In this document: in pieces, positions 1,311 through 19,638 of the stretch
Position numbering within the stretch: position 1 is the stretch's first letter
Layout: the number at the start of each line of letters is the position of its first letter
From: an uncultured virus (IMG/VR IMGVR_UViG_3300047444_000174)
Taxonomy: Duplodnaviria; Heunggongvirae; Uroviricota; Caudoviricetes
Length of the DNA: 20,000 nt
Strand: one strand, 5' to 3'
IMG/VR virus record: IMGVR_UViG_3300047444_000174
The notes under the pieces: model-generated
Databases searched by the model: none
Seen by the model: only the letters and a program-made list of their open reading frames with translations
What the model was told of the DNA's origin: nothing
Made by a program: the position numbers and the translations under genes

Positions 1311-2203
1311 TCATCGGCCCAGTCCGTCCCGACCTTCTCCGGAATGAATATCTCTGTCGTGAGTCCGCTTAATGCGAGGCGATTCGCAAGCGCGAAGGCT
1401 GCGCTCTGGCCGGTATAGTTGGCGTCGTTATCGCCAAAGACGATCACGTGCTTGACGCCTTCCGGCACTTCCCAATCGCGCATACCACCAGCGGAGATTG
1501 CGGCCCACGTCGGCACGTCGAATCGCACGGACGCCCGCAGCGCGGTTTCGATCCCTTCGGCAATCCCAAGGCACTCGTACACTTCAGTCAGGCGTATGGC
1601 GCCGGTTTTGATCGTGCCGGCCATGACCTTCTTCGGCTCGCCGACCGGGGCCTTGCCGCCGTTCCCATCCAGCCAGGTGCGATGCATGGTCGATGCCTTG
1701 CCGTCCGGCATCGTCACCGTGGCGAGCATCGCCGGGAATGAATGCGTTGCGTCATAGCGAAGATTCGGGTGATATCGAATCGCGCTCGAGACAGTCTCGA
1801 TGCCGGTTCGGCGGTTCAGATAGGCCCACACCGGATCGCCCTGGGTTACTGGCTTGGATTCGGTCCAGGCCCGCTTCAATGCCGCGCGCTTCTGCTCATC
1901 GCTGAACTCCTGGCGAGGACCGTCCTGTTTCGAGACACCCAGGACGCGCTCAACTTCGCGGGCAGCCTGCACAAATGACCAACCGTTGAGTTTCTGGATC
2001 AGCGCAAAGCCATCGCCGGCACCATCGTTCGAGCAAAACCACGTACCGCGCCCGTCTTTGTTGTCAAACCTCCAGCGGTCTTTCCCGCCGCATAGCGGGC
2101 AAGGACCGTGCTTCTTCGACAGGAACTCAGGAGCGATGCCCAGCGACGTCAGAATCGATTCCCAACGTCCCACGCACAGGTCGCCGATCTTTTCACTACG
2201 CAT
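1307..2203 (-). CDS. Primase: P4-alpha-type Zn ribbon + TOPRIM domain
   Basis: HGPCPLCGGKDRWRFD Zn ribbon; GIAEGIETAL and FGDND TOPRIM motifs. Confidence 0.9.
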   Translation of the reverse strand: MRSEKIGDLCVGRWESILTSLGIAPEFLSKKHGPCPLCGGKDRWRFDNKDGRGTWFCSNDGAGDGFALIQKLNGWSFVQAAREVERVLGVSKQDGPRQEFSDEQKRAALKRAWTESKPVTQGDPVWAYLNRRTGIETVSSAIRYHPNLRYDATHSFPAMLATVTMPDGKASTMHRTWLDGNGGKAPVGEPKKVMAGTIKTGAIRLTEVYECLGIAEGIETALRASVRFDVPTWAAISAGGMRDWEVPEGVKHVIVFGDNDANYTGQSAAFALANRLALSGLTTEIFIPEKVGTDWADE

Positions 2204-3851
2204 GCTTCATCCCCTTGGCGAAAGCGATGTTGCGGGACTGGATGAATTTCTTCGTTTCGGCGGACGGCTCACAAGCGAGGTGCGTCATGCTGTTCGGCCA
2301 CACGCCGTAGCGGTCGCGGTAGACGTGTGCAACGCGACCGTCCGACCATCCCTTCATCGACTGGTAGCCGAGCAGTTCGGAATAGAACTGCTGCTTTTCG
2401 GCCATCGTCGCTTTGACCTTCTTCGCGCCACGCTCCTGCTTGACGAGCTCGCCGTCTGCAGCGTGGATCGTGTTTTGTTTTTCCGGTGCGAAGCCGCATT
2501 GCGGGCACTTGTGCGCCGTCTTCATGAACGAGCATTTCCCGCAAGCTGTCGGCAGCTTTTCTTCTTTCTTCTTCGACGTCGATTGCTTTTTCGGCTTGCC
2601 GTCGTCCAGCTCGAGCGGCAGATCGTCAGTCGGGAAGCCTAGGTGTTTCACGGTGCCAGAGTGGTCAAGAATCAGAGCCCGCGTCTTGCCTTCAGACGGG
2701 CGCAATACGCGGCCCGCCATCTGCACGTAGCGGATCAGGCTTTTCGTCGGGCGGGCCAGAATCAGGGTTCGGCAGAAGGGCGCATCCCAGCCTTCGGCGA
2801 GCAGCGAAGCGTTGCTGATGATGGTCGTTTGACCGCTCTCAAAGCGTTTCAGGGCATCGCGGCGGGCGTCCGTGTCGTCGTAGCAATCGATGTGCTCCGC
2901 ACTTACGCCGGCAGCAAGGAACTGCTCGACGATGTGCTTGCTGTGGGCGATGTTGGATGCGAAGACGACCGTAGGCGTACCCTTCGCGAGGCGCATCCAG
3001 TGCGAGACGATATCGCCGATCAGTTCTGGCTTGTCGGTCGCGTTGCCGACGTCCATGTCCGAAAAGTCGAGTTCGCCGAACTTGTTGCGAACCTGCTTGA
3101 TGCCGGTCATGTCCGGTTCGGACGGCGCGTAGATATCGCAGTCGACCAGGAATCCTTCGTCGATCAGTTCGCGGATGCTCGACGCGACGACCATGCGTTC
3201 GAACAGCGGGCCGCCGAGCTTGTCGTAGACCTTGCCCAGACCTTTGGCGAAGGGCGACGCAGACAGGCCGATGACGGGCTTCCCGGCGAACGTTTCGATG
3301 ATGCCGCGGTATTCCTTCGAACCGGCGACACCGTGCGCCTCGTCGATGATGATGAAATCGACGTCGGGGATGCCGCGCTTCGCGATGGTCTGGATCGAGC
3401 AAACCAGCACGTGTTCATACTCGCGGCGGCTGTTTTGCCCCTGAATCACACCGTGCGAGATGCCGTACTTGTTGAAGGTGCGTGATGCTTGCTCGACGAG
3501 CTGGATGCGGTTAGCGAGGAACGCAACGCGCTTGCCCTTGAGCCGCGCACCCTTGACCAAGCCAACGGACAAGGCGGTCTTGCCGCAGCCGGTCGGGCCG
3601 TAGAGCATCTGGCGCAGGTAACCCTCTCCCAAGCCAAGGCGCAGGGCTTGAATCGCAGCGGCCTGATACGGGCGCAGTTCGAGTTCGGCCGCCGCTACAG
3701 TGGTAGTAGTAAGGTTAGTAGTTACTCCTTGGCTAGGTGTAGTTAATCCATTCCCTTCCCTTCCATTCCCTTCCGTCCATGAAGACTCAAAGATTGCTCC
3801 GTGAGTATCGTAGGAGTACTCATTGACCGCGTGATTAAAAAGAGCATTCAT
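2196..3851 (-). CDS. SF2 DEAD/DEAH-box helicase (RadD/YejH-like) with C-terminal Zn finger; start uncertain, may be fused to upstream Rep
   Basis: LRPYQ, GPTGCGKT (Walker A), IIIDEAH, SAS, QMAGRVLR, CGKC...CPQC. Confidence 0.92.
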   Translation of the reverse strand: MNALFNHAVNEYSYDTHGAIFESSWTEGNGREGNGLTTPSQGVTTNLTTTTVAAAELELRPYQAAAIQALRLGLGEGYLRQMLYGPTGCGKTALSVGLVKGARLKGKRVAFLANRIQLVEQASRTFNKYGISHGVIQGQNSRREYEHVLVCSIQTIAKRGIPDVDFIIIDEAHGVAGSKEYRGIIETFAGKPVIGLSASPFAKGLGKVYDKLGGPLFERMVVASSIRELIDEGFLVDCDIYAPSEPDMTGIKQVRNKFGELDFSDMDVGNATDKPELIGDIVSHWMRLAKGTPTVVFASNIAHSKHIVEQFLAAGVSAEHIDCYDDTDARRDALKRFESGQTTIISNASLLAEGWDAPFCRTLILARPTKSLIRYVQMAGRVLRPSEGKTRALILDHSGTVKHLGFPTDDLPLELDDGKPKKQSTSKKKEEKLPTACGKCSFMKTAHKCPQCGFAPEKQNTIHAADGELVKQERGAKKVKATMAEKQQFYSELLGYQSMKGWSDGRVAHVYRDRYGVWPNSMTHLACEPSAETKKFIQSRNIAFAKGMKHA

Positions 3852-3985
3852 TTCACTGAAATTCCGGTGTGGGGATCGCCGACTTAGAGGGGCGATTGAT
3901 GACTTGATGTTTCTTGAATCCGTGAATATGGAGAAAAATCTCTCCATCACTCACTGAGTACTCACTGAGCAATCCGTGAGTTAGC
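3748..3985. repeat. Putative replication origin: iteron-like repeats and purine-rich tract at the Rep/helicase junction
   Basis: CTCACTGAG-TA-CTCACTGAG (3950-3969), TCCGTGAG at 3798 and 3973, GAGTACTCA at 3814 and 3956, TCCATTCCCTTCC repeated within 3747-3773. Confidence 0.5.
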
Positions 3986-4185
3986 AACTCTTGAATGAGC
4001 TTGTCGCAGTCGAGCGAATCTGCCGGAAAAATCTGCATCTTCAGCTTCTTTGCCGAGCGCTGAAGATTGCCGTTGTCGTCTGCGAAATTCCAGCAACCGA
4101 TGAACAGCAAGCGCGCCCCGAACGACAACTCGACGATCTTCTCGTCAGTCCAAAAGTCCGGCTTGATCGTGCGGATGCGAGCCAC
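3853..4185 (-). CDS. Phage replication initiator N-terminal (wHTH) domain, 110 aa
   Basis: MARIRTIKPDFWTDEKI...ARLLFIGCWNFADDNG...FKKHQVINRPS, a typical N-terminus of lambdoid Rep/replisome organisers. Confidence 0.8.
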   Translation of the reverse strand: MARIRTIKPDFWTDEKIVELSFGARLLFIGCWNFADDNGNLQRSAKKLKMQIFPADSLDCDKLIQELLTHGLLSEYSVSDGEIFLHIHGFKKHQVINRPSKSAIPTPEFQ

Positions 4186-4956: not shown

Positions 4957-5292
4957 TTAGTCGCGCCGCTTTGCTTCCTTGGTTTTCCGACTCGACGCCC
5001 CGCCCGGATTGTTTTGGGCGTCGTCGCTGGCCTTGACTCGCTCTACAATGTCGCTATCGGCGATCGACTGCGCCGAGCTGCGGATGTAGGCCCAATCGAC
5101 ATCGGGGCGCAGGTCTTCGACACGAACCGCACCCGCAGAAGCCTTCTCGATCTCAATGGCCAAAGACTCAGCACACCGACGTTGCTTGTAGGCGATCTGC
5201 CAGAGATATGCGACGGAGGTTCCGACCTTAGTGGCGAACGCATCGCGCTCGACCTTGGCCAGTCCTTTGAAGTAGGTGTGAAAGGTATCCAT
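4957..5292 (-). CDS. cro: Cro/YdaS-like repressor
   Basis: ERDAFATKVGTSVAYLWQIAYKQRR HTH and IEKAS...EDLRPDVDWAYIR motif; divergent from cI. Confidence 0.88.
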   Translation of the reverse strand: MDTFHTYFKGLAKVERDAFATKVGTSVAYLWQIAYKQRRCAESLAIEIEKASAGAVRVEDLRPDVDWAYIRSSAQSIADSDIVERVKASDDAQNNPGGASSRKTKEAKRRD

Positions 5293-5299
5293 GGGTTTA

Positions 5300-5328
5300 A
5301 CGATAGCATTTGCTCTCGCAAAGCGCAA
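5300..5328 (-). promoter_or_regulatory. PR promoter (-35 TTGCGC, 17 bp, -10 TATCGT)
   Basis: Sigma70-like boxes with 17-bp spacer, closely similar to PL; -10 ends 7 nt before the cro ATG. Confidence 0.7.
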
Positions 5329-5376
5329 GCACTTGCTCGCAAAACAATAGGATTTGCTATCACAGCAAATGCTAGT
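5302..5376. promoter_or_regulatory. OR operators (consensus GATAGCAnnTGCTATC)
   Basis: GATAGCATTTGCTCTC 5302-5317, GCAAGCACTTGCTCGC 5325-5340, AATAGGATTTGCTATC 5346-5361, CACAGCAAATGCTAGT 5361-5376. Confidence 0.75.
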
Positions 5377-5395
5377 TTTCGGGTTTAATTTGGCC

Positions 5396-6193
5396 ATGGA
5401 TATCCACGCACATCGCCGGAACAGGCTCCAAGAGCTTGTCGACAAAGAGGCAGACGGAACGGCCGCAGAATTTGCACGGAAACATAATCTGGACGCAACG
5501 CGGATCAGGCAGCTCTTAAGCGCTACCTATCGCAACGGAAGAGGCTTTGGAGAGGGGGCAGCAAGAAATCTCGAGACGGCACTCGGGCTTGACCACCCTT
5601 ACTTCGACTTGGGGCTTGAGAGCGCTATTGCCTCTCAGCATATTTCCAATATTTCCGATGCATCAATCAGCGCACTAAACACGGGCAACATTGGTCAATC
5701 AAAAAGCGCAGTCGCCGTTAGTCTGGATGAAGGAGACCTACCCAATCCAACATCCGATGAGTTCGCTTTCGTGCCCCAATTAGATATCGCCGCGGCCTGC
5801 GGCAACGGCCGGTTTGAAGACCATGTGGTAGTCAAGGGTGGAATGGCGTTCAAGCGCTCGAAGCTGCGCGAACTGGGCGTTCCAGAAAACGCCGCGAGAC
5901 TTATTGTCGCCGCCGGCGGGAGCATGTGGCCAAAGATTCAGGACGGACGTGACGTCCTCATAAATACCGCAGATATCGAGCCCGAGGATGGCAAGGTCTA
6001 CGCTATATGTATGCCGCATGATGGGCTCGTATTGAAGCGCCTTGTATGGGAATATCACCCGCAGGTCGGCGCGGAAGTTTGGGTCATCAAGAGCGACAAT
6101 CCGGACAAGACCACCTTCCCCGACAAGATTCTGCCGCCCGACGATCGGACGCGCATCGCTGGACGTGCGGTTTGGACGGACAGCGTGCTTTAG
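5396..6193 (+). CDS. cI: CI-like repressor with S24 autopeptidase domain
   Basis: N-terminal HTH (RRNRLQEL...GEGAARNLETALGL), AACG cleavage-site region, catalytic GGSMWP (Ser) and LKRL (Lys). Confidence 0.93.
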   Translation: MDIHAHRRNRLQELVDKEADGTAAEFARKHNLDATRIRQLLSATYRNGRGFGEGAARNLETALGLDHPYFDLGLESAIASQHISNISDASISALNTGNIGQSKSAVAVSLDEGDLPNPTSDEFAFVPQLDIAAACGNGRFEDHVVVKGGMAFKRSKLRELGVPENAARLIVAAGGSMWPKIQDGRDVLINTADIEPEDGKVYAICMPHDGLVLKRLVWEYHPQVGAEVWVIKSDNPDKTTFPDKILPPDDRTRIAGRAVWTDSVL

Positions 6194-6250
6194 TCCATTT
6201 TTGGACGCTAGGCTATGGCAGGCCTCTATAGAAAATGCAGAACTCACGCG

Positions 6251-6256
6251 TATAAT
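6251..6256 (+). promoter_or_regulatory. Perfect -10 box (TATAAT) upstream of the two-gene accessory module
   Basis: TATAAT 40 nt before ATG 6297; GGAG RBS; no clear -35. Confidence 0.5.
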
Positions 6257-6296
6257 GAGTGTCGTACCAACCATCAACCACCAACCGGAGAAAGCA

Positions 6297-6515
6297 ATGA
6301 AGGAACTGCTGGACGTCTTGGCTGGCGTTGGTTCCGCTCTGAACGCATTCGGCTCTGTGCCGCAGTATGACGTTCCCCGCAGGGGCGATCAGGCGCGCGA
6401 TTTCGCCTTGATCGGAGGGGATATTCGTCGCGCTACAGATCGAGTCGAAAAAACAGCACACAAAGCACTGACAGAGCGCAATGGGACGACAAACAACCGC
6501 ACAGGTGAAAGGTAA
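6297..6515 (+). CDS. Small hypothetical protein, 72 aa, upstream partner of the DUF2335-like gene
   Basis: GGAG RBS; DQARDFALIGGDIRRA segment; overlaps the downstream gene by 35 nt. Confidence 0.65.
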   Translation: MKELLDVLAGVGSALNAFGSVPQYDVPRRGDQARDFALIGGDIRRATDRVEKTAHKALTERNGTTNNRTGER

Positions 6516-6882
6516 GGATCACAGCCTGACCGTTTCTCATCATGAAACGGATGCGCCGCTCTTGCCGATGGTGCAGATCGAGCGCCTCAAAGAGATCCTT
6601 CCCGATAAAGTAGATTGGGTTTTTGAGCAGGCCAAGGCAGAGGGTGATTTCCGCCGCAGTGAAACGAGCCGCGTGAACTGGTTCAAGTTCATTGATCGTA
6701 TGGCCGGCATCGTGTCCGGGTTTTTAATTGGGGTCATCGGATTAGGCGTCGCCGCCTATCTGTCAATGCATGGCCATGACACCGTGGCCGGCATAATCGG
6801 CGGAACAACCGTCGTGGGCTTAGTGTCCGTGTTTGTGATTGGCCAGATTAAAGCCCCATCTCAACGCCAGAACAATAAGTAA
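6481..6882 (+). CDS. DUF2335-like membrane protein (2 TM)
   Basis: PLLPMVQIERLKEILPDKVDWVFEQAKAEGDFRR followed by two hydrophobic Gly-rich helices. Confidence 0.75.
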   Translation: MGRQTTAQVKGKDHSLTVSHHETDAPLLPMVQIERLKEILPDKVDWVFEQAKAEGDFRRSETSRVNWFKFIDRMAGIVSGFLIGVIGLGVAAYLSMHGHDTVAGIIGGTTVVGLVSVFVIGQIKAPSQRQNNK

Positions 6883-6885
6883 TCG

Positions 6886-6909
6886 AAGCCCAGCCCCGCT
6901 GGGCTTTTT
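6886..6909 (+). terminator. Intrinsic terminator between convergent genes
   Basis: AAGCCCAGC-CCC-GCTGGGCTT-TTT. Confidence 0.75.
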
Positions 6910-7109
6910 CATTTCCGCCTCTGCGCGAACCCCTCCCTCCACAACGTAGCGCCGACTGACGTCAATAGCGCCAGGTCGTCTCCCTCGAACCTCTCCCAGT
7001 TCTCTGCCAGCCAGCCCGCGAAGCCTGCGCACGCCTCATCAAGCGGCACGTCAGCTCGGCCTTCGATGTTCAGCCGCTCGAAGATGGTGATTACGTCTGC
7101 TGGCGTCAT
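6909..7109 (-). CDS. Small acidic hypothetical protein, 66 aa
   Basis: AGGAG RBS, TAGACT -10-like box upstream; ends at the terminator. Confidence 0.7.
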   Translation of the reverse strand: MTPADVITIFERLNIEGRADVPLDEACAGFAGWLAENWERFEGDDLALLTSVGATLWREGFAQRRK

Positions 7110-7151
7110 ATCTAGCTCCTATCCAACTCCCAGTCTAGCCCCGTAGGCAGC

Positions 7152-7215
7152 GATAAAAAAATTTATCAACAAGCGATAGCTTTTGCTTGCGTTAAACGAG
7201 AGCGTTTGCTATTGT
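7152..7215 (+). promoter_or_regulatory. OL operators and PL promoter (-35 TTGCGT 7187-7192, -10 TATTGT 7210-7215)
   Basis: GATAGCTTTTGCTTGC 7175-7190 and GAGAGCGTTTGCTATT 7198-7213 match the OR consensus; weak GATAAAAAAATTTATC 7152-7167; 23-bp period as for OR1/OR2. Confidence 0.75.
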
Positions 7216-7266
7216 TCATCCATCGAAGCAAGCAACACCGCACCAACCACTAACCGGAGAGCGAGC

Positions 7267-7494
7267 ATGAGCCAGAACGCACGTACGCAGGGGATCGCAG
7301 CATTCAATGATGTAGCGAAGCCGGTGTACCAGAATCCGTACGCTTTCTCTGCAGACCCGAATTCCGACTATGAGCAGTTTCGCCTTGGATATTTCGTGGC
7401 GCGGCACGAAGGCCATCAAAGCGTTATCCAAAACATGCGCGGCGCGGAACTGCCAGCCGGATACATCAAAGGGTCGCAGCGTTACACCGCATAA
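7267..7494 (+). CDS. First PL gene, hypothetical 75 aa
   Basis: GGAG RBS; ATG about 50 nt after the PL -10. Confidence 0.7.
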   Translation: MSQNARTQGIAAFNDVAKPVYQNPYAFSADPNSDYEQFRLGYFVARHEGHQSVIQNMRGAELPAGYIKGSQRYTA

Positions 7495-7535
7495 AGCTCA
7501 AAACCGCCGCAGAGCACCGCGGCAACAGGAAGGAA

Positions 7536-7638
7536 GGTCGAAACCCGGGCCAAACCTAGTGCATGAGTGCACACGCTATAGGCGAGTACCTAACAGTACG
7601 CACCCGGGTCTGAGCGTAACGCGCTCACTGACGAGACC
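7536..7638 (+). ncRNA. Type II hammerhead ribozyme (predicted cleavage after C7610)
   Basis: GGTC(II)-GAAA-CCCGGG(III)...CCCGGG-TC|TGAGCG(I)-TAACG-CGCTCA-CTGACGA-GACC(II); all core nucleotides and three stems present. Confidence 0.88.
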
Positions 7639-7693
7639 GTGAATAACCGCAGTAGAGGAACACAGGCGCACGGCGTCGCCTGGTGGGGCAAGA

Positions 7694-7706
7694 GATCTTT
7701 AACAAC
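7694..7706 (+). promoter_or_regulatory. boxA-like (nutL-like) element
   Basis: GATCTTTAACAAC resembles boxA GCTCTTTAACA and directly precedes a long hairpin, as lambda nutL precedes its RNase III site. Confidence 0.6.
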
Positions 7707-8386
7707 GTAGTGGTTTGAGTTTGATCAGAGCTGGCGGCTTGTGTCCGTACGCGGAACATGACGAGCAGTTGGCCATGATAGTCGCCAGCCCTGATCACAT
7801 TCGAACCACTGCAACAGAAGGCATACCAGTAATGGCGGGGCCAACGCGCTACCCCGGAAAAGATCGGCGCCTATCAGTGATCCGCCTGGTCGACAGATTC
7901 GACTATAGAACGGATCGCTGATTGATAACCGCCGCACCTAGGCCGGAGCCAGCATAGCTGGGAGTAGTCGGATTGGTGCGGCAAAGCAGTTTTTCGTGAA
8001 TGGCGTTGTGCGGCGTGGAGTGACACGCACAGTAGGCGTAGAAGGCGTTGCCCGCTTGCGGCCAATGTGCATCGCATGCGGGGCGTTGGAGCCGAAGACA
8101 CCCGGGTGGAGCTTAAGTGCTTTGAAGCTGCGGGGCATACAGAGCTGGGCTGGTGACCCAGACACAGCGCCATTCACGAAGAGCTGCAGCATTGAGGCGA
8201 GAGCATTGAACTCCCTGCATAGCTGAGTATCTGCTGTAGCGAACCGCGAGACCGCGTTCTCGTGCAGTAACTCCGGCTCATAGGCTCCCTGCACAGTACC
8301 AGTGCTCTTTCTTGAATGCTGAAGCTTCTAGCGATTCTCCTTACGGTTGCCGATTCTCGCGAGTCGGTAGCGATAAGGGGAATTGC
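7707..8386 (+). ncRNA. Array of long stem-closed RNA modules in the PL leader
   Basis: Stems 7707-7812, 7873-7922, 7931-7982, 7986-8187, 8188-8320, 8331-8386; most mismatches are G-U on the + strand. Confidence 0.7.
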
Positions 8387-8438
8387 GCATCGGCGTATTG
8401 ACGCCTGTTAGTACAACGAATTGGATCAGGAGACTGAA

Positions 8439-8651
8439 ATGAGCAAATGGTTCGAAGTGAACGTTACGACTTGGAAGCGGGTGCTCGTCGAAGTCGAGGA
8501 TGACGAGACCGCAGAAGACGCCGTTGATATCGCTGTCAACGAGCATTTGATCGGCAAAGACGGCGAAGCATCTGCGCATAGCGACGAACCGCTGGATGGC
8601 CTGAAGCTGGCAAGCGCACGGCGCCATGCAGACGAAGTAATGACGCTTTAG
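8439..8651 (+). CDS. Small acidic hypothetical protein, 70 aa
   Basis: AGGAG RBS; MSKWFEVNVTTWKRVLVEVEDDETAEDAVDIA. Confidence 0.8.
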   Translation: MSKWFEVNVTTWKRVLVEVEDDETAEDAVDIAVNEHLIGKDGEASAHSDEPLDGLKLASARRHADEVMTL

Positions 8652-11230: not shown

Positions 11231-11418
11231 CCCGCTACGACAACGCTCTTCACGTCATGGAGCTGCAAGGCGGCTCGTTCGTGAAGTCACTGGCCAACTG
11301 CTACCTCATGGCCGATCCATTCAACAAAGCAAAGCTGCGCGAAACGTTCGCCGGGTACTTCGATGTGTATGAGGCGAGGTTCGAGCAGTGGAAGGAACAA
11401 CATAAGGAGGCTGCGTGA
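11227..11418 (+). CDS. Small conserved phage protein (GGSFVKSLA...ADPFNKAKL..TF)
   Basis: GGAGG RBS; overlap-coupled on both sides. Confidence 0.75.
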   Translation: MTRYDNALHVMELQGGSFVKSLANCYLMADPFNKAKLRETFAGYFDVYEARFEQWKEQHKEAA

Positions 11419-11882
11419 GAGAAATCCCGCTTACGCGAGGCTTGGTGGCCTTGGTTGACGACGCGGATTATGAGGAATTGGCGAAGCACAAGTGGTTTTG
11501 TGATAGCCGCGGATACGTGGCGCGGAAGGTTCCCCATCCTCTCAAGCGCCAGGTAACCGAGCTAATGCATCGCGTAATTCTGGGCCTGGAATATGGCGAT
11601 CCTCGGCAAGGAGACCACAGGAATCGCAATCGACTGGACAATCAAAGGTCCAATCTTCGGCTTGCGAGCAATGGAGAAAACCAGCGCAATAAAGGCGACT
11701 ATGCAACAAACACATCGGGGGTTAGGGGCGTGTATTGGTACAAACCAACCCAGCGATGGAAGGCGCAAATTAATGTAGATGGAAAGAAAAAGCACCTTGG
11801 GTATTTCCAGTCCATTGATGACGCATCAGAGGCATATAAACAGGCTGTACGCCAACTGCATGGCGAATTTGGCGCCGTTTAG
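11415..11882 (+). CDS. HNH endonuclease with AP2 domain
   Basis: IPLTRG..ALVDD.DY, MHRVI, DHRNRNRLDNQRSNLR, NTSGVRGV...HLGYF...HGEF. Confidence 0.92.
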   Translation: MREIPLTRGLVALVDDADYEELAKHKWFCDSRGYVARKVPHPLKRQVTELMHRVILGLEYGDPRQGDHRNRNRLDNQRSNLRLASNGENQRNKGDYATNTSGVRGVYWYKPTQRWKAQINVDGKKKHLGYFQSIDDASEAYKQAVRQLHGEFGAV

Positions 11883-15112: not shown

Positions 15113-15529
15113 ATGAATGCAAAAGAACTTGCTGCCCAACTGAACAGCATCCAGTACCCGGTTCGCATCCCGAAAACGCTCACCGATGCAGCAAAGGCTG
15201 ACGGACTTGTCATTGTTTACGGCGCCAGCGACGACTTGATGGAGTTCGAAGGAGCAATTTATGGCGAGGTCGGTGTGTATGACGGCGGAACGGCTTTCGT
15301 CGACGCGAAAGGCCTGTTGCCCGATCGGGACAGCATTGAGGACGACGACGACTTGAAAGACTATTTTGCACGCCAGCCCAATGCCAAGCCGATTGAGGCG
15401 CAGTGGTCAGAAGGTGCGTACTCGTGGATGTACAAGACCGAGATACCTCACGAAACGTTTGAGGTGTTAGAGGACGGTGAGCCACCGTATTGCCGCGGCA
15501 TCGTGTTCGCGCTAGCCGACGTCAAGTAG
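15113..15529 (+). CDS. Conserved phage protein (GLVIVYGASDDLMEFEGAI...CRGIVF)
   Basis: Recurring phage/prophage motif; function unknown. Confidence 0.82.
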   Translation: MNAKELAAQLNSIQYPVRIPKTLTDAAKADGLVIVYGASDDLMEFEGAIYGEVGVYDGGTAFVDAKGLLPDRDSIEDDDDLKDYFARQPNAKPIEAQWSEGAYSWMYKTEIPHETFEVLEDGEPPYCRGIVFALADVK

Positions 15530-15585
15530 GCATATCTGCCACCCGAATAAACGGCGTTTATGCGCCATTTGATAGAGCTGGAGCT

Positions 15586-15930
15586 ATGAACATCTACCGC
15601 TATCAGTTTGTCAGTCACTGTCCGAACAACGACCGTCCGATCATTTACTCACTGGAGATCGAGACGGATTCGGCGATTCAGGTCGAGCATATCGTCACTG
15701 CCTGTTCACTGCACAGGCGTGCATTTCACGAGGCCATCGCGGACGAGTTGCATCAGCGGTTCAATGGGCGGCACGTCCTGAAAGCTCATCACCATGGTGT
15801 AGATATTGAAACTCGACGAGGCTTTGATGACCCGAGTCACGGTCGGCTGATGCAGCGCGTTCAAATTGGCACGACCGTCTACGAGAAGGGTGTCGAAGCC
15901 ATTCGCGCAATTAAAGCCATTTCACACTAA
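15586..15930 (+). CDS. QueF-like (QueF-L) T-fold protein
   Basis: F.SHCPNND N-terminal Cys-Pro, FHEAIADEL His-Glu motif, HHGVDIET strand; GGAG RBS. Confidence 0.62.
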   Translation: MNIYRYQFVSHCPNNDRPIIYSLEIETDSAIQVEHIVTACSLHRRAFHEAIADELHQRFNGRHVLKAHHHGVDIETRRGFDDPSHGRLMQRVQIGTTVYEKGVEAIRAIKAISH

Positions 15931-15939
15931 GGAGATTTC

Positions 15940-16311
15940 ATGCTCGTTTATCTTTGCGGTCCCATCAATGGTTGCACCGATGCCGAATGCAACGACTGGC
16001 GCTCGTATGCGAAAAGCCGCTTGTCCGACACGCTGGACCCGATGCGCCGCGACTACCGCGGACGCGAAGCGGAGTCCGTCAATGAAATAGTCGAACTAGA
16101 CAAGATCGATGTGCAGGAATGCGATGTCGTAATCGCGAACTGCCCGAAACCCAGCGTCGGCACCAGCATGGAAGTGTTCTATGCATGGGAATTGGGCAAG
16201 AAAATTGCCGCAATCGCACCAGAGCCGGTGAGCCCATGGCTGCGCTATCACAGCACCCGGGTGTTCGGAACGATCAAAGAAGCAATTGACTGGATCGAGG
16301 CGCTTGCATGA
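15940..16311 (+). CDS. Nucleoside 2-deoxyribosyltransferase / nucleotide N-glycosidase family protein
   Basis: VYLCGPI, DPMRR, D...V.ECDVV, SVGTSMEVFYAWELGK (catalytic Glu); AAGGAG RBS. Confidence 0.85.
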   Translation: MLVYLCGPINGCTDAECNDWRSYAKSRLSDTLDPMRRDYRGREAESVNEIVELDKIDVQECDVVIANCPKPSVGTSMEVFYAWELGKKIAAIAPEPVSPWLRYHSTRVFGTIKEAIDWIEALA

Positions 16312-17066
16312 TTCCGTATCATGGGTTGCCAATCACGCCAGCAACTGCCGCCGCGCGAGCCATCTCCGGCGGGCATGCGTTCATCTCGTTTCGCCACCCG
16401 GACCAATTATCGCTTGCTCTTGATATTGCTCAGTCGTTCGCGGTGGACAACGGAGCTTTTTCAGCATGGCGAAGCGGCAACCCTGTTACGGACTGGAGTC
16501 GGTATTACGAGTGGGTGGCAGAGCTTCACCGCTACCCACCGTTCGATTTTGCAGTTATTCCCGATGTCATCGACGGGGACGAGGCCGCAAACGATGCGCT
16601 TATCACCGAATGGCCGTGGCGCGAACACGCTCCTTGGGTGGGCGCCCCGGTGTGGCACTTACATGAAAGCCTTGAACGCCTGCAACGACTGGCGATGGAA
16701 TGGCCGCGCATCTGTCTCGGCAGTTCTGGGGAATTCGCTACGGTCGGGTCGACATCTTGGTACATGCGAATGGCGGAGGCAATGGATGTCATTTGTGATC
16801 GAGACGGACGGCCAGTGTGCAAGATTCATGGTTTGCGCATGCTGAACCCGGACATCTTCACCCGCTTCCCCTTCGCCAGCGTCGATAGCACCAACATCGG
16901 CCAGAACATCGGAATCGACTCGGCATGGCGCGGCACTTATCCGCCGGCGACGAAAGAGTCACGCGCGATGGTGATGCGCGAGCGGATCGAGAAAGAGCAG
17001 TCGCCGATCTTTTGGGATCGATCCGCTGCGCCGATTCAGGCCGGGCTAGACCTGTTCGCCGCCTAA
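16308..17066 (+). CDS. tRNA-guanine transglycosylase-fold protein, DpdA-like (deazapurine DNA modification)
   Basis: DNGAFSAW, VIPDVI, PVWH, CLGSSG, IHGL, SVDST motifs of the TGT/DpdA barrel. Confidence 0.68.
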   Translation: MIPYHGLPITPATAAARAISGGHAFISFRHPDQLSLALDIAQSFAVDNGAFSAWRSGNPVTDWSRYYEWVAELHRYPPFDFAVIPDVIDGDEAANDALITEWPWREHAPWVGAPVWHLHESLERLQRLAMEWPRICLGSSGEFATVGSTSWYMRMAEAMDVICDRDGRPVCKIHGLRMLNPDIFTRFPFASVDSTNIGQNIGIDSAWRGTYPPATKESRAMVMRERIEKEQSPIFWDRSAAPIQAGLDLFAA

Positions 17067-17113: not shown

Positions 17114-17596
17114 ATGAGCAATGAAGACGCAGTGCCGAAAGACGATCAACAGCAAACATTCGGCCCAAATTCTGAACCGCACGGCTGGGCGGTTATGGAA
17201 GTGCTCACACGCGATATGTACGGCGCGCTTCGGAGTCGCACGACGATTCGCGCGAAAGATGGCTTCCTCGACATGGCAATTGAAGAATACGTCGGGACGC
17301 AGGGTCGTGCAAAGCGTACAGACGTGCGTCTGCACGGCGAAGCGCTCGAAGTATTGCGCTCGATTCTCACCCGGCCGGTCGCCGCACCCGTCGCCCCCAC
17401 CGCCGAGCAGGCAGAGGGAGTGCTGGTGGATGCGGATCGGTATCAGTGGCTGCGCCGCCGCGCCGTGATGGTCGATTACAGCGACGAGACCGTTACCAAG
17501 TTGACGCTTTTCAAAAACGAAGGCCCGACAGGCGAATTCCTCGACGACTGGATCGACGGAGAATGTGCTGCTTCATCTACCGGGGAGCAGGCATGA
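17114..17596 (+). CDS. Hypothetical mosaic phage protein (DADRYQWLR motif)
   Basis: AAGGAG RBS; ATGA overlap downstream. Confidence 0.75.
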   Translation: MSNEDAVPKDDQQQTFGPNSEPHGWAVMEVLTRDMYGALRSRTTIRAKDGFLDMAIEEYVGTQGRAKRTDVRLHGEALEVLRSILTRPVAAPVAPTAEQAEGVLVDADRYQWLRRRAVMVDYSDETVTKLTLFKNEGPTGEFLDDWIDGECAASSTGEQA

Positions 17597-18117
17597 ACTC
17601 ACACGTGTGCGCGTTCTATGCAAGCAAGTTGGCATATGACCCACTGACCGGCACTGTGATCCGCAAGGATGGACGCTTCGCAGGAGTGCCAGTAACGAGC
17701 CGAACCTACAAGGGTTACGGTTCATGGAATAGCGGCGGTAAAACCCGCGTGCTCCATCGGGTCGTTTGGGCAATCTTTTACGGCAATGAATCGAGCCTGT
17801 CCATCGACCATATCAACGGTGACAAGTTCGACAACCGCATCGAGAACCTGCGCGAGTGCACGAATGCCCAGAACAATCAAAACAAGGGTATCGGCGCGAA
17901 GAACACGACCGGCTACAAAGGCGTCACGTTTTCTTCGCATGAGCAGAAATTCGTATCGTTCGTGAACGTCAATGGCAAGCCAAAACGAACTGGCTATTTC
18001 GACACGCCAGAAGAAGCCGCACACGCCTACAACAAGGCGGCGATCAAACACCACGGCGAATTCGCTCGGCTGAATGTGCCCGGCCTTCCTGCAAACCTGA
18101 CAGCGAGACAATCATGA
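17593..18117 (+). CDS. HNH endonuclease with AP2 domain
   Basis: YDPLTG, HRVVW, IDHINGDKFDNRIENLR, NTTGYKGV, AAHAYNKAA..HHGEFARLN. Confidence 0.92.
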   Translation: MNSHVCAFYASKLAYDPLTGTVIRKDGRFAGVPVTSRTYKGYGSWNSGGKTRVLHRVVWAIFYGNESSLSIDHINGDKFDNRIENLRECTNAQNNQNKGIGAKNTTGYKGVTFSSHEQKFVSFVNVNGKPKRTGYFDTPEEAAHAYNKAAIKHHGEFARLNVPGLPANLTARQS

Positions 18118-19139
18118 GCAACAAAGACGACGAACTGCTATCTGCAAGCAAACCTGCCGCGCTCGAAGGGTGGAAGATGGTGCCGGTTGAGCCGACGCCC
18201 GAGATGATTCTAAAAGGCGGAATAATCACCCTTGGGATGCCGCTCAACGAACGCTCCGTCAAATGCATCTATGCCGCTATGTTGTCCGTTTCGCCAGACG
18301 CTGCCGAGCCAGCGCAATCGGGGGAGCGGGAAGCGTCAGCCTACGAGACGCTTTTACAAGCTCTTGGCTATCCGTGGCTTCCGTGTCCCATCTGCAAAGG
18401 AACAGAAGGCTGCGACCATCCGTACCCTGAACGTGCGCGCGCCGCGCTATCCGCCCCGCAACCATCCCAGCCCGTGGAGGATGGGGAGACTTCGTCGGAC
18501 GCGGCGCGGATCGAGCGCTTGCGCAAAGGGCTGTTCGAAGCCCGCGACGCGATGCGCGTCATGAGCAATTGGGTGAAGAAGTCAGACCCTGCTGGCCATA
18601 GCTGGGCCGCACAGATGGTTGATCGTGCGAATGACATTTTGAGTCACGCGCCGACTGCTGCCGTGGTGCTGGACGATAAGCGGGCGGCATGGAACACCGC
18701 GTACGAGAAAGGCTACGCGGATGGATGGAGCAAAGGCCCATATGCCCGCGCCGCATCCCCGCAAGCCACCGTGTACTCGCTGTTCTCGTCATCCGATCGG
18801 CGCAATTTCGGACACCTTTCACCACAAGAGTTCGTCAACGCGGTCATCGAGGCAGTGCGGGCGCAAGCCACGGCGACGCAGCCCTGTATCGCGCCTGGCT
18901 GTTATCAGTGGGATGGCACCGATTCGTGCACGTGCCAGAAGGCCACGGCGACGCAGCCAGCACAGACGGACGATCGTAGCGCGATTCTCGAAGAAGCCGC
19001 AAAGGTATGCGACGCACGCGAGGACTGGTACCTGGAAGATGACTGTCGCGGTCAAGCTTGCGCAGCGGCCGGTTGCGCAAAAGATATTCGCGCCCTCCTG
19101 ACCGCCGCGCAGCCAGCAAGCGGAGCCGACCATGAGTGA
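18114..19139 (+). CDS. Ead/Ea22-like mosaic phage protein
   Basis: GWKMVPVEPTPEM, Ala/Pro/Gln linkers, Cys modules, AILEEAAKVC...IRAL. Confidence 0.8.
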   Translation: MSNKDDELLSASKPAALEGWKMVPVEPTPEMILKGGIITLGMPLNERSVKCIYAAMLSVSPDAAEPAQSGEREASAYETLLQALGYPWLPCPICKGTEGCDHPYPERARAALSAPQPSQPVEDGETSSDAARIERLRKGLFEARDAMRVMSNWVKKSDPAGHSWAAQMVDRANDILSHAPTAAVVLDDKRAAWNTAYEKGYADGWSKGPYARAASPQATVYSLFSSSDRRNFGHLSPQEFVNAVIEAVRAQATATQPCIAPGCYQWDGTDSCTCQKATATQPAQTDDRSAILEEAAKVCDAREDWYLEDDCRGQACAAAGCAKDIRALLTAAQPASGADHE

Positions 19140-19638
19140 GCGCGAACAGTTCGAGGCGGAAATTCGGCTCCGCATCGCCTACGATCCATCGACAGGAAAG
19201 TTGTATTGGAAGAAAAGCCCAAATCGAAACTTGCCGATAGGAAGAGAGATCGGGAAGCCCAACTCTTGGGGGCACCTCAGTTTTGGATTCCGCGGCAGGA
19301 CATGGATGGCCCATCGCGTCGCATGGCTTCTGCACTACGGGTCTTGGCCAGAGAATCAGATTGATCACATCAACGGAATCAAGGCCGACAATCGCATCGA
19401 AAACCTGAGAGACGTCAGCCAGAGCATCAATCTGCAAAATCAGCGCGCTCCACATCGAAACAACAAGTCTGGATTCTTGGGCGTGACGCTTAGGGGGGAT
19501 GGCCGTCCCAACCCGTACAGGGCATGCATAAAGATCAACGGGAAGAATATTAATCTGGGGAGCTTCTCTAGTGCGGAAGAGGCACACGCCGTCTACCTCG
19601 AATCGAAGCGAAAGATTCATGCAGGAGGAATGCTGTGA
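19132..19638 (+). CDS. HNH endonuclease with AP2 domain
   Basis: YDPSTG, AHRVAW, IDHINGIKADNRIENLR, NKSGFLGV, LGSF...EEAH. Confidence 0.92.
   Translation: MSEREQFEAEIRLRIAYDPSTGKLYWKKSPNRNLPIGREIGKPNSWGHLSFGFRGRTWMAHRVAWLLHYGSWPENQIDHINGIKADNRIENLRDVSQSINLQNQRAPHRNNKSGFLGVTLRGDGRPNPYRACIKINGKNINLGSFSSAEEAHAVYLESKRKIHAGGML

Follow-up and report, generated by a model that had tools for sequence, protein, structure and literature searches.

A modular array of structured RNAs in the early-left leader of a temperate Paraburkholderia-type phage

The region from position 7694 to position 8386 of the DNA analysed here (20,000 nucleotides, called the window throughout, the final 20 kb of a virus record that is 66,471 bases long) is a non-coding leader that heads the early-left (PL) operon of a temperate phage of Paraburkholderia type. 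We think it somewhat probable (roughly 55%) that the leader is an array of exchangeable structured non-coding RNA modules, likely cut by the host into stable RNAs that would act in trans, one of them tRNA-shaped with a variable insert. This reading is built on the observed folds, their covariation, the strand on which they form, the swapping of modules and of their cargo, the tRNA geometry of one module (module D) and the match of the boxA to that of a host rRNA leader.

Replication genes lie to the left of the cro/cI pair, and on its right the plus strand carries small genes, recT and an exonuclease, as assigned with PHROGs, which also placed integrase, terminase, major head and tail sheath genes elsewhere in the same virus record. 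Given this set of cro, cI, integrase and head/tail genes, the phage is temperate and lambda-like. Rhizosphere metagenomes contain the DNA of the window, and since 12 of 213 genomes of the genus of Paraburkholderia dilworthii match 7600-8420, the phage host is probably a Paraburkholderia. A blastn comparison of 7150-8450 with cultured phages gave zero matches. The features around the array are the following:

4957..5445, minus strand: cro-like repressor ORF (PHROG 35, E 3e-13)
5354..6193, plus strand: CI-like repressor ORF (PHROG 4, E 7e-28)
7176..7215, plus strand: predicted PL promoter, TTGCGT-17-TATTGT (7187-7215), read from the sequence and from its position
7267..7494, plus strand: 75-aa ORF 3' of the promoter, with no PHROG
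7536..7638, plus strand: predicted type II hammerhead ribozyme, its stem III carrying a branched insert (the minimum free energy, MFE, structure is the hammerhead fold)
7663..7682, plus strand: small hairpin ahead of boxA, in a boxB-like position, read from the sequence
7694..7705, plus strand: boxA-like site that shares 11/12 bases with boxA in the rRNA leader of a Paraburkholderia genome (G041)
8428..8651, plus strand: ribosome-binding site and first early gene (ATG 8439, 70 aa), from the sequence and the PHROGs scan, the operon running on to recT and the exonuclease

Some other genes of the window are worth recording. A moron-type membrane protein gene (6481-6882, plus strand, PHROG 3996), missing in some relatives (joint 6206-6897), converges with a conserved 66-aa gene (6909-7109, minus strand, PHROG 21839) at a common terminator-like hairpin (6884-6907). 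Among three adjacent genes at 15490-17066 are ORFs resembling a deoxyribosyltransferase and a queuine tRNA-ribosyltransferase, which hints at modified DNA bases, and the same operon holds three HNH endonuclease genes (PHROG 99; 11415-11882, 17446-18117 and 19132-19638). On the minus strand (2196-4185), a helicase ORF is overlapped in another frame by the N-terminal ORF of a replication initiator (3853-4185), possibly one fused gene split by a frameshift or a sequencing error.

The predicted PL promoter overlaps operator-like repeats resembling those between cro and cI, and is missing from the output of the consensus promoter scan (7187-7215). The 75-aa ORF that follows it matches only itself and one 56-aa fragment, relatives carry unrelated ORFs in its place, and neither PHROGs nor the similarity search recognised it as an N-type antiterminator; likewise, none of the ORFs scanned with PHROGs could be recognised as N-like. 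N proteins are difficult to detect. The hammerhead has the CUGANGA and GAAA core, an NUH site, three stems and an open stem II, with a core that is invariant in 13 of 13 sequences and a stem I that covaries at all six of its six pairs; self-cleavage is predicted, at a site after C7610 (GUC). One relative (L354) matches RF02276 below threshold, and degenerate hammerhead remnants are seen in some others (e.g., L134 and L141). In L141, a tRNA-Leu-like sequence with an enlarged central part, enclosed by a short closing stem, lies upstream of boxA, between it and the hammerhead remnant, and was not called by ARAGORN. A hairpin related to that at 7663-7682 is present in 15 distinct copies. The hairpin of the window precedes boxA, the order in lambda nut being boxA and then boxB. 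As for the boxA that the earlier note had placed ahead of the array, a boxA-like sequence is indeed found at 7694-7705, where the window reads GATCTTTAACAA, and the Paraburkholderia rRNA leader reads GATCTTTAAAAA ahead of the 16S gene.

Relatives of the leader were located by way of cI, of a small gene nearby and of DNA patterns. Before counting, 35 loci, most of them from a single search, were dropped that had the F-like motif (see module F below) only or were short; 49 rows were kept, and the set of 30 used below comprises the distinct leaders with a boxA match (8 rows without a match to the boxA pattern, duplicates and L356 being excluded). Because leaders were chosen by similarity and by the boxA pattern, the module frequencies and the conservation of boxA are biased. 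One of the DNA search patterns gave mostly chance matches (about 9 of 120 related), and the hammerhead pattern yielded one related leader among the loci fetched from genomes; another pattern matched 387 of 401 genomes and was too loose, and a further one matched 0 of 5, so that no claim is built on either. In the relatives, the promoter comes first, in many cases followed by a small variable ORF and in many by a hammerhead (within 260 nt in 12 of the 30 leaders); then come a small hairpin, boxA, the modules in a variable row and, last, the first early gene. A prophage of P. dilworthii (L167/L323) carries such a leader. Separate from these leaders, about 25 viral loci (L282-L321) share an F-like hairpin motif and are otherwise dissimilar to the window, possibly as another leader family.

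The array folds strongly, and more so on the plus strand than on the minus strand. All six stems that the earlier note had listed are present in the MFE fold of 7690-8390, which has a folding z of -8.93 on the plus strand and -3.78 on the minus strand (20 shuffles each), and inverted repeats were found at 7709-7739/7780-7810, 7986-8010/8163-8187 and 8182-8208/8300-8326. The 25-bp stem 7986-8010/8163-8187 consists, as had been claimed, of 22 Watson-Crick and 3 G-U pairs. The bias towards G-U pairs, from which an RNA of the plus strand had been proposed, extends to the relatives: over the long stems of the 30 leaders, there are 141 G-U against 23 A-C appositions, an excess that points to RNA of the plus strand. 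The view that no convincing ORF lies here also holds, as the five ORFs inside the array have zero PHROGs matches (also 7625-7798 and 7370-7642), and four of the five run into in-frame stops in relatives; the ORF at 7996-8226 (plus strand) could be aligned to two relatives only, neither with a stop and one gapped. Rfam gave only chance-level hits on the window (MIR5229, E 0.075; anti-hemB, E 0.98; E up to 1), with its models of tRNA, c4, IsrK and CRISPR-repeat RNA among those unmatched there, and ARAGORN found nothing in the window or the whole genome. The sole RNA record is one 171-nt contig with 13 differences from the window, in which strand and ends are not visible and which is not counted as support. 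The modules, all on the plus strand, are:

7707..7812, plus strand: module A, a long stem (33 positions, by stem count) with a 40-nt interior (z -9.1)
7826..7870, plus strand: module B, a small hairpin and an H-type pseudoknot (7836-7839/7853-7856 and 7846-7849/7867-7870), from covariation
7873..7922, plus strand: module B', a 12-bp stem with an inner hairpin (z -5.9)
7931..7982, plus strand: module C, a hairpin whose helices vary freely while its internal loop (GAGC opposite GGWGUWG) is conserved, from covariation
7986..8187, plus strand: module D, a 25-bp closing stem around a tRNA-shaped RNA (z -5.3, scaffold scans)
8188..8320, plus strand: module E, a long stem, irregular and variable at its tip, with C-rich internal loops of two-fold symmetry (z -3.5, alignment of 6)
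8331..8386, plus strand: module F, a 24-bp hairpin (26 positions) with a 2x2 internal loop and without a U-tract (z -8.1)

Folded singly with 200 shuffles each, the modules gave z values of -9.1 (7706-7812), -5.9 (7871-7928), -3.75 (7931-7982), -5.3 (7986-8187), -3.5 (8188-8322) and -8.1 (8331-8386). The stretch 7817-7876 folded alone is not above its shuffles (z +0.34); because the folding program cannot draw pseudoknots, the support for this stretch is the covariation of the pseudoknot (7826-7870), which is absent from the six stems of the earlier note. Covariation in homologous leaders, the check that had been proposed, is present in modules B, C and F, with counts that are inflated by kinship among the sequences: both sides changed at 5 of 11 pairs in module B (9 distinct sequences, 100% of cells paired, changes across all three helices, four of the five due to the variant that the window itself has), at 16 of 18 pairs in module C (15 sequences) and at 4 of 21 pairs in module F (12 sequences). 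Slid-partner controls for modules B and C lie far below the observed pairing. Module F is the final module before the first early gene in all 10 of the 30 leaders that have it. Module B holds AAAGAUC, which is complementary to boxA in the MFE fold; a boxA/module B switch was considered and rejected, as no compensating change was seen across relatives.

The modules vary independently among related phages, a point that the earlier note had put up for testing, with no module 3' of boxA common to all 30 leaders and with a mosaic order. Long stems are a general property of the leaders, which contain 47 stems of at least 18 positions, against 2 in one shuffle of each leader. In 11 leaders, a D-type closing stem with hardly any change encloses interiors that range from 77 to 153 nt, and the family of the module A stem has interiors of 62-156 nt in relatives (tRNA-shaped in L156 and L331), the cargo of the long stems being exchangeable. 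Other stems starting with GCAGT covary along their length and enclose different cargo classes, and in contigs from independent metagenomes the match covers the two arms of stem A and of stem D but leaves out what lies between them. Two cultured phages (phi644-2 and vB_PL1) have a structured leader, sites resembling a promoter and boxA, and a closing stem around a scaffold; none of these is annotated. Rfam hits on the relatives were restricted to tRNA, tmRNA-end, int-alpA and hammerhead models. A recurring module containing GGAAAG(A)CGG, which we take to be reminiscent of c4-type RNAs, is present in the leaders L137, L138, L145, L151 and L331, with no gathering-level Rfam hit in the copies scanned.

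Judged from its sequence, the cargo of module D has tRNA geometry. An acceptor-like stem (8005-8011/8162-8168) is paired at 6 of 7 positions, with the mismatch at the seventh pair, and is followed after a 2-nt linker by a D-like arm (8013-8028), while a T-like arm (8145-8161) is stacked on the acceptor and a variable insert of 116 nt (8029-8144) replaces the anticodon arm. A tRNA shape is not present in modules A, B, B', C, E and F of the window. When 33 of the 47 stems were entered in a cargo test and the 31 with interiors of at least 55 nt were counted, 22 of 31 cargoes had a T-like hairpin at most 3 nt from the 3' arm (mean of 3.6 and maximum of 9 in shuffles), and a D-like hairpin was found at the 5' arm in 18 of 31 (shuffles: mean 5.3, max 11). 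The T-like loops are mostly without the T-psi-C consensus. A scan with the D-like arm alone retrieved 120 viral stretches (109 distinct), of which 68 were anchored without using acceptor positions 1-4. At these four positions, which lie outside the search pattern, 239 of 272 cells pair, against 95 in shuffles (max 128), and the tetramer is fully paired in 60 of the 68 anchored copies, with 32 different tetramers.

The same slot in relatives holds a second scaffold, paired in 74 of 95 anchored copies against 7.4 in shuffles. This second tRNA-shaped scaffold (L362-L481, e.g., L367 at about 1195-1345) has D-like and T-like loops that are mutually complementary and inserts of very different lengths; it is widespread, also in cultured phages of several hosts, and has no Rfam match. 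From exact patterns alone, the two scaffolds are estimated to occur in about 170 and 180 viral contigs. In some relatives, the slot contains RNAs that ARAGORN or Rfam calls tRNA, without a readable anticodon, and in other phages tRNA-shaped scaffolds are free of long stems. In module D, G-CCA stands at 8169-8172, with the CCA paired within the long stem. An encoded CCA at the end of each cargo was considered and rejected (5 of 81 in a first count, with 4 of 60 among window-scaffold copies), N-CCA being encoded after the acceptor in these 4 of 60 copies and in 12 of 74 copies of the second scaffold; the CCA end could be added by a host enzyme.

Signals for processing and transcription were considered as well. 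According to PMC6212723, RNase III acts on duplexes some 22 bp long and has WSSW and A-U preferences, and the stems of modules A, D and F have 33, 25 and 26 positions and match this motif in the simplified form W-N-W-S-S-W-N-W. Across the leaders, the simplified motif occurs in 17 of 47 stems against 11.1 in shuffled ones, a weak excess (p 0.04, the stems not being independent). A terminator of the GC-hairpin and T5 type, looked for with a simple pattern, is absent from 30 of 30 leaders. According to PMC13753749, boxA recruits NusB and S10 in E. coli and suffices for the antitermination complex of rRNA transcription.

The processing route that we infer, in which every enzymatic step is conditional, would begin with transcription from PL after induction or infection. 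The hammerhead would then cut after C7610 and free the array from the small upstream mRNA, and boxA would load the host NusB/NusE complex of rRNA type, so that the polymerase could cross 700 untranslated bases without termination by Rho. RNase III would cut the 20-30-bp stems of modules A, D, E and F; its cleavage of module F would at the same time create the 5' end of the downstream early mRNA. RNase P and 3' exonucleases would trim the tRNA-shaped cargo, whose acceptor and T-like arms may protect its ends, with the insert displayed at the anticodon position. In the last and weakest step, the displayed inserts might act in host takeover or counter-defence, either as decoys or as regulators that base-pair; hypervariable inserts on constant scaffolds would follow from such a role. 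An antisense target was not found within the phage's own genome, where the best reverse match outside the array has an E of 0.71. An effector role is suggested by the position in the early operon, by the constant scaffolds with variable inserts, and by the precedent of DicF, PreS and c4, and the roles may differ from module to module.

Another reading, possible if rather unlikely, is that the leader acts mainly in cis, with boxA and some modules (B, C and E) forming an RNA-based antitermination or polymerase-modifying element and with stems that set the 5' end and stability of the early mRNA, the released RNAs being by-products. The host-type boxA at the head of the array would suit such a role, as would the lack of a recognised N-like gene in the ORFs scanned, the place of module B directly behind boxA in many relatives, its complementarity to boxA through AAAGAUC, and the last position of module F wherever it is present. 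However, the variable rows described above contain no module after boxA that is shared by all 30 leaders, which is a poor fit to a required cis element; the pairing of boxA with module B lacks compensating changes, and the tRNA-shaped scaffolds also occur outside long stems in other phages. Quite improbable, in our opinion, is that remnants of tRNA genes and mobile RNAs collect at a tolerant site, with the shared stems as recombination points and the cargo without a selected function; tRNA-like shapes without an anticodon, the degenerate hammerheads of some relatives and the mosaic order of modules would all agree with this, but the non-tRNA-like modules show strong covariation and conserved loop motifs, acceptor pairing is preserved across 32 different tetramers, and the layout is preserved in cultured phages. 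Finally, five ORFs of 68-118 codons overlap the array, yet they have no PHROG hits, four of their five frames are broken by stops in relatives and the G-U excess over A-C points to RNA of the plus strand, so that small proteins, or stems acting as DNA hairpins, are a very remote explanation.

Early-left operons are the site of host-takeover genes of temperate phages, and their long "empty" leaders are unannotated. Should such leaders prove to be operons for stable RNAs built on tRNA-shaped scaffolds, then phage effectors of a widespread class have so far escaped notice. The defined modules of the array lend themselves to individual deletion, exchange and pull-down, and the array offers natural designs for stable RNA display together with three unnamed motifs, i.e., the pseudoknot of module B, the internal loop of module C and the symmetric loops of module E. 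To speculate, and we doubt it more than we believe it by a wide measure, temperate phages of Proteobacteria might possess a natural tRNA-scaffold display, in which rRNA-style operon slots are loaded with interchangeable, diversifying inserts that serve as RNA-only anti-defence or host-takeover effectors, for example as decoys for tRNA-cutting or RNA-sensing defences; if true, such a display would be to RNA what anti-defence islands are to genes.

Neither the leaders nor the scaffolds are described in the literature searched, in which few subscription papers were covered, and six of the supplementary files of Fremin 2023 (PMC10690425) gave no motif hit, single modules possibly being listed in its files 1, 2 and 4. 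Type II hammerheads are known from prophage operons (RF02276; Perreault 2011, PMC3088659), and the hammerhead at 7536-7638 shares their intact core, type II topology and phage setting; unlike them, it has a branched insert in stem III and no Rfam hit in the window, and it is a neighbour of the array, not part of it. PreS (LPR1) of lambda is described in bioRxiv 2024.10.31.621285 as a trans-acting sRNA from the early-left operon, whereas the array lacks a U-tailed terminator of Hfq type. The UG27 loci are, according to bioRxiv 2026.09.22.753630, prophage arrays of structurally conserved, sequence-diverse RNAs, whereas the array has units of several kinds; no reverse transcriptase was found among 78 ORFs scanned with PHROGs (43 plus 35 of 66).

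The tRNA (RF00005) resembles module D in its acceptor-like stem stacked on a T-like arm, its 2-nt linker and its D-like arm, whereas module D has no anticodon arm, mostly lacks T-psi-C in its kind and rarely has an encoded CCA. Among phage RNAs, the CI RNA of P4 is matured by RNase P. The c4 RNA of P1/P7 is cited as an RNase P substrate (PMC4919922); the window differs from it in having no Rfam c4 match and no antisense target found in the phage genome. The closest precedent in the literature searched is the DicF/dicBF operon of the E. coli prophage Qin, which, like the array, is a non-coding stretch in an operon under a prophage repressor; when folded here, DicF sits inside a long closing stem, as in the layout of the array. 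Sequence homology to dicF is absent, with no Rfam match in the window and no motif shared with the Qin region, which matches none of the motifs for boxA, either scaffold, the start of the D stem, the T-loop and the hammerhead, and dicBF has one characterised sRNA where the array has six or more swappable modules. The rrn leader, with its boxB-boxA, Nus antitermination and RNase III stems, resembles the array in a boxA that is 11/12 identical and is followed by long stems enclosing structured RNAs, whereas the array belongs to a phage operon under a CI-type repressor and carries small variable cargo instead of rRNA, its Nus loading being predicted. The array is a conserved, modular phage RNA operon of unnamed modules, outside every catalogued family, which resembles the processed RNA polycistrons of phages and whose layout is nearer to an rRNA/tRNA processing operon than to the nutL of lambda.
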